DNA of 64,000 nt from an uncultured cyanobacterium (GCA_963744145.1 CAVUSO010000001.1:7264001-7328000), one strand, 5' to 3'; counted from the first letter of the stretch, positions 35,339 to 48,502 are shown. The notes: generated by a model from the letters alone, not told the origin. Translations and numbers: made by a program.

Positions 35339-35707
35339 ATGTCTGAATCCATCCAGCAAGAAGCTGAAGCCATAATAAATACTCTTGCATCCATTCCTTT
35401 TCAAAATTGTATTGCCCTTTCCAAAGAATTTCGCGAACTACCGATGAGGGCTGGGATCTACGCTGTCAAGCATCGTACCCTTTCCACCCTCTATATCGGT
35501 AAAACCAGATCACTACGCGATCGCTTTCGTGGCGGTCACAAAGCTTTACTTTGGGCATTTATTGAAGAATTGAAAGCCACAGACATCCGAATCGCCTTTT
35601 ACCAATTAGATTTTCCTCAATGGATTCAGCTATCATCAGAATTAGAAAGCCTAATCATTCAAGCAGTTAACCCACCCTATAATGTGAAAATTCCAGCAAG
35701 GGACTAA
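35339..35707 (+). CDS. GIY-YIG nuclease family protein
   Basis: AGIYAV...LYIGKT..LRDRF...LESLIIQAVNPPYN. Confidence 0.88.
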   Translation: MSESIQQEAEAIINTLASIPFQNCIALSKEFRELPMRAGIYAVKHRTLSTLYIGKTRSLRDRFRGGHKALLWAFIEELKATDIRIAFYQLDFPQWIQLSSELESLIIQAVNPPYNVKIPARD

Positions 35708-44425: not shown

Positions 44426-45710
44426 TTATTTAATGTTAATTGGTGGCACTAGAGGTAAATTGGGGTCTTCTCCTAAATGACTAATATTGCCGAGGGAAAT
44501 ATCTCCTGTCGTGAGAAACCGAAAAGTTTCTTGATAAAGACTTTTCCAAAAGGTGTTACTCATCCCACGACTAACTTCAGTCGGATCTACCATGGGATGA
44601 GGAACTAAATCTTTAGTCGGATAAATATACAAGCGATGACCGTTAGGTTCAGCACCGATATCTTGGAAAAATTGCTGGTTAGTTTCAATATCAGCTGCAT
44701 CTTCATTTTCCGTCAAAACTAACATCGTCGGAATCCGACTGAGTTTTTTTCGATTCTGATCATTACGCACAAAAGCACCAAATCTGTTAGTTGCGGTTAA
44801 TGCTCCCACCGGAAACCGTAATGCTGGGTCCCAACCTAATTCTTTCAAATCTAATGGACCAGCTAAATTCACATATTGTCTTCTTTCTTCACCATAAATC
44901 TTTAGTAATGGTGCATAAGCAACTACACCTTTAATCCGATCGCTTCGATCGGCTGCTAGTGCTAATGCTACTGCTCCCCCAACTGATAACCCAACCGTAT
45001 AGATTGGTCCGGGTAGATGATCTAATTCTGCTAAACGACTCCGCGCTTGGATTAAGTAATCCAGATGAGTCGAAACAAAATAGCGATCGAAGTCTGGATC
45101 GCGATCGATATCGATCGCCAGAATAATTTTTGGTAATCGTGGTTCTAACGATAACAATCGAGCAACTAATGCTAACTGCTGTTGATAGCTAGGACGGGCA
45201 AATCCCTCTGGATTATTAATAATGTTAGTTAGATATTGTTGTAAAACGTGATCTTGGTCGATTTTTTCTTGCAACGATTGGTAAAGGTCTGGTTTAAGAT
45301 CAACTTGAGATCCAAAATTTACTAGGTGGAACAAATACATGACCTGCTAAAGAGGGTTGATAGACATTAAATCCATTCCGAAATAAATAGTCTGCTAAAC
45401 GCCACATTTGATCAGGTTTAGCGCTAAATCCATGAAAAATCATCACTGTTCCCCGAATCGGTTGTCCCGCTTCATGAAACAAATAATAAGGGTAAGCACC
45501 TACTCGACGTTGACGATTAGCATCAATAGTTTTAATATAAGCATCAATGATTAACTTTGTTTGGGCAATTTGCTCGGCACTAGGATTAATGGTAAAATTA
45601 AAATTCTCACTCAGCGTCTGAGGTTGAGCTGAGGGCAAAAATCCCTTGAAAAATTGACCAGGTTTAGCCAAACATTGTTTAATTAGTTCCAGCATAGTCA
45701 ATATCCCCAC
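44426..45710 (-). pseudogene. Alpha/beta hydrolase split by +1 frameshift
   Basis: FHGFSA...PSLAGH in the first ORF, GLSVGG in the second; frames join at KFW/QVDLKP near 45308. Confidence 0.85.
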
Positions 45711-45816: not shown

Positions 45817-46947
45817 TTATTTACCAAATCCTTTGGGTTTTTCTCGTTTCGGTAAACAAACACATTCTTCTAGTTGCGATCGCAATTTTTCATGGTCTAA
45901 CTCTTGACCAATCAATACCAATTGGTTTTTTGGTTGACCTTTCCATTCGTCATCTTCGATCGAAAAACGTTTTCCACAAAGATGAAAAATATGTCGTTTG
46001 GGACTTTCATCAAACCACATAATTCCTTTAGCTCGAAACACAGTTGCTGGTAACTGATTGTCTAAAAAGTATTGAAACTTCTTAATTGCTAATGGTTTAT
46101 CACTCTGAAAAGAAATCGAAGTAAATCCATCATTTTCTAAATGATCAGAGTGATGGTGATGATGTTCGTGATCGTGATCATGTTCATGCACACAATGACC
46201 ATGATCATGGTCACAGTCATGGTGATCATGGTGATCATGGTGATCATGGTGATCATGGTCTGATTTTTCTGACTCAAAATATTTATCAGATTCAAACAAA
46301 CCAACACTCAGAATTAATGGGAGTGCGACCTGTGCTTTAGTGGTTCGGAGAATTCTTGCTCCTGGTTTAACATCGCGAATTTTGATTTCTAACAAATCTA
46401 AATCCGCTTCATCAACCAAATCGGTTTTGTTGAGCAAAATAACATCACCGTAGACAATTTGACTTTCGGCAGCTTGACTATTAAATAAATCCAAACTAAA
46501 ATTAGCCGAGTCTACTACAGTAATAATCGAATCAAGACGAGTCATGTCGCGCAGTTCTGTTCCCAGAAATGTCAGTGCTACTGGTAAGGGATCAGCCAGA
46601 CCTGTTGTTTCCACTACTAAATAATCGATTTTTTCTGCACGTTCCAAAACTTTGTAAACTGCTTCAACCAAATCATTATTAATGGTGCAACAGATACAAC
46701 CATTGCTTAATTCCACCATATCCTCACCAGTGGTGACAATCAATTCATTATCGATCCCGATTTCACCAAATTCATTGACTAAAACTGCTGTTTTGACTCC
46801 TTGCTGGTTAGTGAGGATGTAGTTAAGGAGAGTGGTCTTACCACTACCTAGAAATCCTGTAATAATGGTAACTGGGAGACCTTGTTTAGGATGATCTAGT
46901 ATCTGAGAAGGGTCCGAGGTAGCTGTTGATTGCATCATGCGAGTCAC
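45817..46947 (-). CDS. COG0523/CobW-family metallochaperone GTPase
   Basis: TGFLGSGKTT, NEFG, GCICC, ETTG, NKTD, His-rich loop, RAKG. Confidence 0.95.
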   Translation of the reverse strand: MTRMMQSTATSDPSQILDHPKQGLPVTIITGFLGSGKTTLLNYILTNQQGVKTAVLVNEFGEIGIDNELIVTTGEDMVELSNGCICCTINNDLVEAVYKVLERAEKIDYLVVETTGLADPLPVALTFLGTELRDMTRLDSIITVVDSANFSLDLFNSQAAESQIVYGDVILLNKTDLVDEADLDLLEIKIRDVKPGARILRTTKAQVALPLILSVGLFESDKYFESEKSDHDHHDHHDHHDHHDCDHDHGHCVHEHDHDHEHHHHHSDHLENDGFTSISFQSDKPLAIKKFQYFLDNQLPATVFRAKGIMWFDESPKRHIFHLCGKRFSIEDDEWKGQPKNQLVLIGQELDHEKLRSQLEECVCLPKREKPKGFGK

Positions 46948-46986
46948 AAAAAAACTTGGTAAGTGGGAAGCTCAGGTTCTTTAGAC

Positions 46987-47104
46987 CGTTCGACTTGTCC
47001 CTGAGTTTACCCTGAGTTTACCCTGAGCGAAGTCGAAGTTTACCCTGAGCGTAGTCGAAGGGGGCGGAGTCGAAGGGCGGAGTCGAAGGGCGCTCACTTA
47101 GAGC
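46987..47104. repeat. Five nested ~24-nt small dispersed repeat units
   Basis: Consensus TTTACCCTGAGCGNAGTCGAAGGG; removing 118 bp restores TCTTTAGAC|CTGAGAG as at the IS right end. Confidence 0.85.
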
Positions 47105-47237
47105 CTGAGAGGGAAACGACCCAAGTGGTTTTAACCACTAGAGAATATTTCTTAATCTTACCATTGCTTTTGTAGAAAAGACTTGCTTTTTTCTCGACAT
47201 TGAGCTATGATGTATATAGAGAAAAGAAAGTGATCAA

Positions 47238-48471
47238 ATGGTCAAAAGAAAGAAACCCGAAAAGAAGCCCCAAGTACCGTTAGGTGTTCAGCAAAATTTA
47301 ATTGATGCTGGTTCAGAGTTAAAGGCAATTCTTGAATTTATTTGCTCAGAGTCCAATAAACTACACAATTGTGCTAACTATTACGCTCGTCAAATCTGGT
47401 TCAAAACTCGCAGATTTGTAACGAAGTTTGAGATTGGGACGTATCTAATACAAACTAAAAATAGACATTTTTCTGCCCTACCATCCGATGCCGCAACACA
47501 AACTTGTAATGCCGTAGGTGAGTCAATTAGTTCCTTCGCCAAGTTACGAGAACTTTGGCTGAGTGGTAAACTCGAAACTAAACCCAACTTGCCCAATTAT
47601 CGAAAACCAGGCTATCAATTAATTGCCTATCCGAACCAATCGCTGAGACTAATTGATGGCAAGATTAGATTTCCTTTAGGATTGCAGGTCAATGCTTGGT
47701 TTGGCATCAAAGAATTTTTCCTACCAATGCCAACTAACCTAGATTTTGAGTCTCTTAGAGAGGTCAGGATACTCCCTAGAAACGGTTGCTTTTATGCTGA
47801 GTTTGTCTACCCGAACTTAGTTGAGAAACCTGTCCTAGACCCGTCGAAGTGCTTAGGATTAGATCACGGGTTAAATAACTGGTTGACAGCCGTTAGTAAT
47901 GTAGGGACAAGTTTTATTATTGATGGCAAACACTTAAAGTCAGTCAATCAATGGTACAACAAACAAGTAGCTAAACTCAAAACTAATCAACCTCAAGGTT
48001 TCTGGTCTAATCGTTTGGCAGCAATGACTGAGAAACGGAATAGACAGATGAGGGACGCTATCAACAAAGCGGCTCGAATAGTGATAAAGCACTGTTTAAA
48101 TAATGGGATCGGGACTTTAGTATTTGGTTGGAATAAAAGCCAAAATCCAACAACTATGTGAGTTGTACGGCATTAAGTTTGAGGAAACTGAAGAAAGCTA
48201 CACCAGTAAAGCTAGTTTTTTAGATGCGGACACTATCCCTACTTACGGTGAAAAACCCGCAGGATGGAAAGCCTCTGGAAAACGAGTCAATCGTGGCTTG
48301 TATTGTAGTTCTCAAGGCATTCAAGTTAATGCTGACTGCAATGGGGCAGCCAATATTTTAAGAAAAGTAGCGATGAATCTTGGGCTTGTCCTAAGTGAAA
48401 TCAGTAGAGGTGTTTTGTACGCGCCTTTGAAGTTCAGATTCTGGACTCTTCAAGAATCTCGGTGTCTTTAG
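47238..48471 (+). pseudogene. tnpB: TnpB RNA-guided nuclease gene with internal deletion and frameshift
   Basis: GLDHGLNN (RuvC-I), EESYTSKAS, NADCNGAANI; jumps from VFGWNK to KAKIQQLCELYG near 48136. Confidence 0.88.
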
Positions 48472-48502
48472 ACCTGAGAGTATCAAAAAAGCCTAATCTA
48501 CT

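Follow-up and report, generated by a model that had tools for sequence, protein, structure and literature searches.

Self-nesting repeats of about 24 nucleotides (nt) are among the smallest pieces of DNA that behave as mobile elements. The closest described system is that of the small dispersed repeats (SDRs), SDR1 to SDR8 of Nostoc punctiforme and its relatives, which were reportedly presented by Elhai, Kato, Cousins, Lindblad and Costa in Genome Res in 2008; to our knowledge, the mover of such repeats has been an open question since then. Here we analyzed a stretch of 64,000 nt from an uncultured cyanobacterium (GCA_963744145.1, CAVUSO010000001.1:7264001-7328000), called the window below, in which a 118-bp insert consists of five hairpin units of about 24 nt placed inside one another, within an end hairpin of a tnpB-only insertion sequence (IS) of the IS200/IS605 family. 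Positions in the window are counted from its first letter, and positions elsewhere in the genome carry the prefix C1. It is highly probable that the nest was built by serial insertion of an SDR-type element, and quite probable that the hairpin is the cognate partner of a gene family encoding Slx1-like GIY-YIG proteins.

SDRs are reported to be dispersed, high-copy repeats of 21-27 nt which form hairpins with compensatory changes, have no known encoded protein, insert precisely into themselves without duplication, and lie embedded in heptamer arrays and in small transposon-like repeats. The present unit resembles them in each of these points: the genome contains 189 nested events in 96 nests with a depth of up to 6, and units adjoin heptamer-type arrays at L013 and are embedded in two families of repetitive extragenic palindromic (REP)-like hairpins. 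Since all these SDR features are matched, the nest is of a known kind and a well-resolved new example of it, and the unit fits the SDR type by description, not by the sequence of SDR1-SDR8. The comparison with SDRs had been drawn in the first-pass annotation, an earlier reading of the window from its letters alone, and it proved apt for size, nesting, covarying hairpin and embedding. Two features are unlike SDRs: the loop motif occurs beyond heterocystous cyanobacteria and is abundant in several other phyla, and a linked nuclease gene was identified for the present unit. The SDR paper and the case of SDR5 in HIP1 are mentioned in PMC5861425 and PMC4390886.

REP sequences and REPINs with their REP-associated tyrosine transposase (RAYT, TnpA_REP), as described by Bertels and Rainey 2011 (PMC3116915), share with the present system the hundreds of short hairpins, the single-copy gene bracketed by inverted hairpins and the patchy occurrence. 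Unlike in those elements, the linked gene here is a GIY-YIG gene and not a Y1 HUH gene, the loop is conserved instead of a GTAG-tagged stem, and the units nest in one orientation. MITEs, the miniature transposable elements with inverted repeats, are also non-autonomous, short and present in many copies, but the units lack both terminal inverted repeats and a target site duplication and are 4-10 times smaller. For IS200/IS605 elements, peel-and-paste transposition is established for IS608 and ISDra2; they have in common with the units the lack of target duplication, the strict orientation and the recognition of hairpins, and the host of the nest is such an element itself, whereas the unit is a single 24-nt hairpin with no fixed 5' tetranucleotide and no link to a Y1 gene. 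The unit is not a member of the REP/RAYT, IS200/IS605 or MITE groups, though it forms a REP-like population of solo hairpins plus a bracketed gene. With GIY-YIG homing and Slx1 nucleases (PMC1564403) the linked protein shares the minimal stand-alone domain and the horizontal distribution; a homing endonuclease, through repair, has its own gene copied into alleles that lack it, while here a gene-free 24-nt piece enters unrelated hairpins. A full-text literature search, with Elhai et al. 2008 outside its coverage, found nothing that ties the hairpins to a UPF0213 GIY-YIG gene, and this bracketed nuclease gene appears to be the new part. The unit sequence itself returned only unrelated primers in the literature full text, and a plasmid collection gave one weak Microcystis match and no Nostoc plasmid.

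Architecture of the nest

The nest of five units occupies 46987..47104, or equally 46986-47103 or 46988-47105, the placement ambiguity being a 2-nt CC with three equivalent positions. On direct reading the 118-bp insert parses exactly as U0(U1(U2(U3(U4)))) with no bases left over, and target duplications are absent at the nest and at the unit junctions inspected, so both of these claims of the first-pass annotation hold. A recursive excision parser (core CCCTGAGCGNAGTCGAAGGG, up to 2 substitutions, both strands, border offsets tried), run unaided, independently rebuilt U1-U4 as a nest of depth 4 with 0 mismatches, while U0 lies outside its tolerance because the U0 stem is degenerate.

The innermost unit, U4 (TTTACCCTGAGCGTAGTCGAAGGG, 47039..47062), is intact with 24 nt on both direct reading and the parser, and it sits after G22 of U3. 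The remaining halves of U1-U4 are placed by the parser, all on the plus strand: U3 has its left part at 47017..47038 and its last two bases at 47063-47064, and follows G11 of U2; U2 (left half 47006..47016, right half 47065..47077) follows G11 of U1; and U1 comprises TGTCCCTGAG at 46996..47005 and a right half at 47078..47090. U1 has the tail TGTC and the loop base G, and its length is 22 or 23 nt, as T46996 may count as the variable loop base of U0; the variable loop bases of the others are G (U2), A (U3) and T (U4). U1 is reversed relative to U0 and stands at the U0 variable loop base, and a reversed TGTC-type unit at the same host position is also found at C1:6464755 and upstream of the GIY-YIG gene. 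When U1-U4 are excised, the reversed variant unit U0 remains (CGTTCGACT/CGCTCACTTAGAGC). Its stem is degenerate. Read on the minus strand, its 3' part lies at 46987..46995 and its other half, the 5' part as given by direct reading and the left-end alignment, at 47091..47104. The 24-nt U0 unit occurs alone at the same site in C1:3370437 and C1:177449, and better-paired variants of it at that site in C1:4591355 and C1:6642802.

The host of U0 is the left-end hairpin of the IS (46947..48486, plus strand), with the 5' arm CTCAGG at 46971..46976 pairing with the 3' arm CCTGAG at 47104..47109 (direct reading and left-end alignment). The insertion point is at the 3' edge of the loop TTCTTTAGA, CTCAGG-TTCTTTAGA^CCTGAG. 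When 19 paralogous left ends are aligned, this one site shows an allelic series: 12 are empty, with the site TCTTTAGA^CCTGAGAGG and with the closest copy (95% identical) among them; 5 carry a single 24-nt unit; and 2, the window copy and C1:6464755, carry nests. The single units vary in stem (CTCTAAGT.., CTGACCGT.., CTCGCCGT..). Thus the 118 bp is missing from most copies of the IS, as 12 of the 19 left ends are empty, and the ordered record of self-insertion which the first-pass annotation had read from the nest is borne out by the exact parse and by empty, single and nested states at the same site.

Short metagenome contigs are identical, letter for letter, to both flanks of the nest up to its borders; among these short contigs, none crosses the whole nest. 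In one of them 46985 is directly followed by 47104, but one side has just 21 letters, and an empty paralogue is its most likely source. Another contig, from a different metagenome, follows the window over 46866-47005, which includes unique cobW sequence, U0 and the left half of U1, and then carries a CTTG-type unit in place of U2. At depth 2, this is a weak hint that the inner layers differ among related strains. Besides, the core GAGCGNAGTCGAA with at most 1 mismatch occurs 4 times in the 64-kb window versus 0.12 expected, and 0 of 100 shuffles reached 4, so a chance origin of the core matches in the window is excluded.

The unit family and its hairpin

Generally, a unit has 22-24 nt, with a 4-nt 5' tail, a 4-bp stem CCCT/AGGG and a conserved loop GAGCGNAGTCGA of 12 nt. 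The core GAGCGNAGTCGAA has 275 exact matches in the genome versus 0 for the reversed control. The parser counted 403 units in total, of which 214 are top-level, so that the free-standing copies sought as a check of the first-pass annotation are plentiful, and 189 are nested; the depth counts are 118, 52, 31, 8, 4 and 1 for depths 1 to 6. The 96 nests comprise 82 distinct sequences and 43 architectures. Over the whole genome, 390 left and 383 right halves were found, and in the regular nests, in which n left halves (L) are followed by n right halves (R), written L^n R^n, n is equal on both sides. Most nested units (163 of 189) are exactly 24 nt long, and 186 of 189 have the orientation of their host; in all 3 reversed events, a TGTC-type unit stands at the variable base of the loop. 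Insert and host carry different bases at this variable position in 89 of 189 events. The insertion points are concentrated after G11 (90 events, with a 1-nt ambiguity), after C12/G13 (about 31) and after G22 (about 30). The first-pass annotation had noticed two insertions at CCCTGAG|, and 90 of the 189 nested events indeed fall at CCCTGAG^. The tail type tracks the position, TTTA and TGTT being mostly at G11 and CTTG at C12 or G22.

The main unit hosts are two families of REP-like hairpins of 51-52 nt (for example C1:251695 and C1:568116), whose spacers hold most of the top-level units and whose arms are GCATTCGGGCGA../..TCCGAATGC and CATTTCGGC../..ACCGAAATG with about 270 and about 390 pattern matches. 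The lengths of these repeats are quantized: they start at 51 or 52 nt, with about 200 copies of each, and rise by 24 nt at a time through 75, 99, 123 and 147 to 171 nt. The top-level units are on the plus strand in 98 cases and on the minus strand in 114; the GC skew is flat, and therefore the replichores are indistinguishable for a strand-bias count.

Two loci are conspicuous for their regularity: C1:4345586-4345780 holds an eight-copy head-to-tail array of a 24-nt unit, and C1:284588-284731 holds a regular six-deep nest, with a 12-nt left part six times followed by a 12-nt right part six times. They are extreme outcomes of repeated insertion at one position. Some units are read through in coding sequences, such as the C-terminal part of HsdM (L044, ..PFDSAQGA..), L098 (..SLSEVEGN..) and a RAYT-like open reading frame (ORF) of 252 aa at C1:6189069-6189440 (minus strand; NF047646 below the cut-off), which contains an in-frame unit (..GHGSTSLTTS..). 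For annotation it matters that the 24 nt equal 8 codons, so that hsdM and the RAYT-like gene contain in-frame units, and that REP-like repeats are inflated.

The stem changes pairwise while the loop stays constant: in this genome the stems are CCCT/AGGG, TGTT/AACA, GGCT/AGCC, GGTT/AACC and CCGT/ACGG. For 119 distinct hairpins of other genomes, pairing is found in 77.8% of cells versus 58.9% in shuffles, and changes on both sides in 193 cells versus 64, a value attained by 0 of 500 shuffles. Covariation is strong in the five inner pairs, for instance in pair 7/22 with CG 88, UA 25 and GC 3, and when the partner columns are slid, pairing falls to 27-49%. The nest as a whole does not fold better than its shuffles (z = +1.06).

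Structure-guided landing, suggested in the first-pass annotation, stands in part. The hosts are the loop of the unit itself, the spacers of the REP-like hairpins and the loop of the IS left-end hairpin. By minimum free energy class, 34% of the insertion points are in hairpin loops versus 25% of random positions, while a perfect-stem search, which is blind to long imperfect REP-like hairpins, gives 16% versus 18%. However, the 16-nt TCTTTAGACCTGAGAG, which is uninterrupted at 48466..48481 in the IS right-end hairpin (plus strand; direct reading and right-end alignment), as had been claimed for this end, is occupied in 0 of 17 aligned right ends despite being identical. The target is therefore not set by that sequence alone.

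A GIY-YIG gene bracketed by the hairpins

The only high-scoring small GIY-YIG gene of the genome (C1:140287-140634) lies between hsdM and hsdS, and 11 loop-motif hairpins were found within 1.7 kb of it. Its ATG follows the end of a nest after 25 nt, and its final codons (..SGFDYAQP..) are provided by a reversed hairpin. Four other small GIY-YIG genes of the genome belong to other families and are not closely flanked by hairpins. The surrounding type I restriction-modification operon (C1:137520-141845; L013, L020 and L163) has a 1.2-kb repeat field from hsdM to the GIY-YIG gene, composed of a 14-nt (two-heptamer) tandem array and three 146-nt tandem units, each of which carries two loop-motif hairpins with different stems.

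The encoded protein of 115 aa, with a core of 97 aa, is Slx1-like and matches the UPF0213 structures 1zg2 and 1ywl; across 13 homologues the columns of the catalytic residues Tyr, Arg, His and Glu do not vary. Dunin-Horkawicz et al. 2006 (PMC1564403) place 1zg2 and 1ywl among the minimal GIY-YIG nucleases of the Slx1 cluster, describe Slx1 as structure-specific, and note a Slx1-like domain newly inserted in a type I HsdR gene of Methylococcus.

We searched two sets of genomes. In 151 genomes of the cyanobacterial order, a homologue is present in 21. All of the 13 intact close homologues are flanked by the hairpin; one gene fragment and five distant homologues (at most 45% identity) in this sample are not. 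In a wide scan of all species genomes, we took the 80 best loci, with 63-85% protein identity, from many cyanobacterial families, Geobacter and Desulfuromonadaceae, Gemmatimonadota, Methylobacter and other Methylococcaceae, Nitrosomonadales, Thermoanaerobaculia and Chloroflexota. Of these 80 loci, 79 have the loop motif GAGCGNAG[T/C]CGAA, with at most 1 mismatch, no farther than 150 nt away; it lies upstream in 74 and downstream in 65. Most often one copy stands in sense orientation at -25 to -40, and another, in antisense, begins where the coding match ends, at the stop codon; the two flanking hairpins are mutually inverted and are therefore like the ends of a DNA element. No tRNA genes were found beside the GIY-YIG loci.

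The bracketed gene lies mainly in the hsdM-hsdS spacer of type I operons, and it occurs in at least five or six phyla. An HsdM-type N6 DNA methylase upstream and/or a type I specificity subunit downstream was found in 41 of the 78 scanned loci, both in 24. The remaining loci have topoisomerase, bilin reductase, GidA, TrpA and psbA-type neighbours, with the hairpins kept, and therefore the hairpins travel with the nuclease gene and not with the restriction system.

The motif is patchy across the 151 genomes, from 0 to 350 copies even within genera. In the two low-copy cyanobacteria 2 of 3 and 3 of 6 motif copies are near the gene; for the low-copy genome G060, these are 2 of 3 copies within about 85 nt upstream of it. 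Five non-cyanobacterial genomes with the cassette contain 9 to 416 motif copies versus 0-2 for the control. Inverted motif doublets 33-40 nt apart, resembling REPIN doublets, are frequent in non-cyanobacterial genomes (loci in G154 and G155). In the cyanobacterial order, with motif-rich genomes defined by at least 20 copies and close homologues by E<=1e-30, the gene is present in 8 of 19 motif-rich genomes versus 5 of 132 others (Fisher p 1.2e-5). In the family of a Methylobacter metagenome-assembled genome (71 genomes, at least 10 copies, strong homologues), it is present in 9 of 15 motif-rich genomes versus 3 of 56 others (Fisher p 1.1e-5).

Proposed mechanism and alternative explanations

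Taken as a whole, we favour, with about an even chance of being right, SDR-type serial insertion in which the units are solo hairpins of a GIY-YIG cassette and are driven by its nuclease. In this scheme, a variant unit (U0) first entered the 3' loop edge of the left-end hairpin of the tnpB-only IS605-family element, and later units entered the loop or the 3' stem of a resident unit without target duplication. The units would be solo copies of the hairpins which bracket the Slx1-like (UPF0213) GIY-YIG gene. The structure-specific nuclease may cut hairpins extruded as single strands, which would both free the units and open the target loops, and host repair or ligation would then seal a unit into its target. 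Taken by itself, the proposal that the GIY-YIG protein is the enzyme mobilizing the units makes it a plausible candidate, at somewhat short of an even chance. More tentatively still, there may be a class of mobile DNA, so far undescribed, that has the 24-nt units as its solo ends and a 95-residue Slx1-like GIY-YIG nuclease as its sole enzyme, one that cuts extruded hairpins in trans and spreads them to hairpin loops, their own included. The outcome is a concrete candidate, one small nuclease gene plus a defined loop of 13 nt on any stem, conserved from cyanobacteria to Geobacter and methanotrophs. If true, it would name the enzyme that mobilizes SDRs, and no earlier transposition-like system would have a structure-specific nuclease of the GIY-YIG type as its driver.

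Several observations weigh against this proposal. The cut-offs for rich genomes and for homologues were picked after the data had been seen, and the samples contain relatives that do not count as independent; the association is therefore overstated by the Fisher values. Nine motif-rich genomes (24-177 copies) have no homologue at profile E<=0.01, and two of them, G138 and G113, are complete or near-complete with one or two contigs. In three low-copy genomes of the Methylobacter family the exact motif is not near the gene. A sister GIY-YIG subfamily, which includes most homologues in the Methylobacter family, co-occurs with the motif and is flanked in only 1-2 of 6 loci, and the gene flanks could simply be a favoured landing site. 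We know of no GIY-YIG enzyme that rejoins DNA; these nucleases only cut, and a separate joining step must therefore be assumed. As for the serial insertion, the loop base of insert and host agrees in 100 of 189 events versus 73 expected if independent, and therefore some local copying may occur; besides, 6 left halves stand against only 3 right halves in the unbalanced nest upstream of the GIY-YIG gene, so processes other than clean insertion also act.

An unlikely alternative, though one which draws on several of these observations, is that another function of the host or of an element moves the hairpins and that the GIY-YIG gene is a passenger or a favoured landing site. It would agree with the motif-rich genomes that have no homologue, with the mostly unflanked sister subfamily, and with the crowding of hairpins around the GIY-YIG gene here as in other repeat-rich spots. 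It accounts less well for a linkage that holds in 79 of 80 loci across phyla with fixed distances and orientations, and that is kept in genomes nearly free of the motif and in unrelated neighbourhoods.

An RNA intermediate, in which the hairpin of a transcript is inserted or is copied back by a reverse transcriptase, is reportedly the route that Elhai et al. proposed in 2008, and we regard it as improbable for these units. An RNA element could likewise have a strict orientation, leave no duplication and keep its loop constant while its stem covaries, and it would suit the upstream cassette hairpin, which is nearly always on the sense strand. But the hairpins that bracket the GIY-YIG gene are opposite in orientation, which is the geometry of DNA ends and not of one transcript, and Rfam gave no family match at the GIY-YIG loci. 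No link between the units and a reverse transcriptase turned up, no co-occurrence test for reverse transcriptases having been made.

The first-pass annotation had pointed to a HUH/TnpA-like enzyme. Movement of the units by a HUH (Y1) enzyme, either the TnpA of IS200/IS605 or a RAYT, through single-strand peel-and-paste has little probability in the light of our comparisons. In its favour are the lack of target duplication, the strict orientation, the hosts (an IS605-family end hairpin and REP-like hairpins), 17 Y1_Tnp matches in the genome, and an IS200-type gene at C1:4993516 which has units on both sides. However, the loop motif occurs at only 1 of 29 IS200-type TnpA loci of other genomes (3 kb each), a single case that resembles chance, and the unit has one hairpin instead of two subterminal ones, with a variable 5' flank (GAG, GAGC, GAAG, AAAC, AGCG, CAGG). 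The co-occurrence with TnpA or RAYT genes that had been put forward as a check does not track abundance either: TnpA is present in 7 of 19 motif-rich versus 72 of 132 motif-poor genomes, and the richest genome (G021, 350 copies) has no match to the TnpA query. RAYT-family genes, present in 16 of 19 motif-rich versus 87 of 132 other genomes, count in favour of the idea, but the excess is slight, and 103 of 151 genomes of the order carry a RAYT. In this genome, one in-frame unit lies inside the RAYT-like ORF and none adjoins it, RAYT flanks elsewhere lying outside the scan.

A local origin of the 118 bp, by replication slippage or unequal recombination within one unit, is very improbable. The regularity of some loci (L^n R^n or tandem arrays), an agreement in loop base between insert and host that is somewhat above chance, and one unbalanced nest would suit it. 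Against it, U1-U4 are unlike in tail and loop base, insert and host differ in loop base in 89 events, the nests have as many as 82 distinct sequences, the halves are balanced within nests and genome-wide, and hosts unrelated to the unit grow by exact 24-nt steps.

The host insertion sequence and other features of the window

By paralogue alignment, the left end of the nest-bearing IS begins after TCA and its right end stops at GTATCAA. The element is a decaying one. Its tnpB (47238..48471, plus strand) has lost 74 nt near 48142 and now consists of two ORFs (47238-48161 and 48124-48471), which carry OrfB_IS605 and Cas12f1-like TNB domains; the reference for this deletion is the paralogue C1:6248400-6250050, which has an intact tnpB ORF of 436 aa. 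In one genome of the same family (G009), a glycosyltransferase gene follows cobW after about 110 nt and the spacer has no IS; as this orthologous spacer lacks it, the IS itself is an insertion. The units probably disable IS ends.

BLAST lengths had suggested units in the right ends of this IS family. They were rejected, since the extra length is a different 20-nt perfect palindrome, GGGCGTATTGCAATACGCCC, which is present in some copies of the family and not in others. It lies in left ends near C1:5660233, C1:177397 and C1:6464700, and in right ends near C1:3371935, C1:6641088, C1:4589977, C1:6464591 and C1:3321376, and it looks like a second tiny insertion element.

In addition, the window contains an unrelated GIY-YIG-domain ORF at 35450-35683 (plus strand; about 146 aa, PF01541 with 31.6 bits). 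It is one of the four other small GIY-YIG genes mentioned above, its paralogue lies at C1:3676067, and no loop-motif hairpin comes within 2 kb of it. At 44426-45710 (minus strand) there are two overlapping ORFs of 304 and 136 aa, both of which match alpha/beta-hydrolase families and are possibly one frameshift-split gene.

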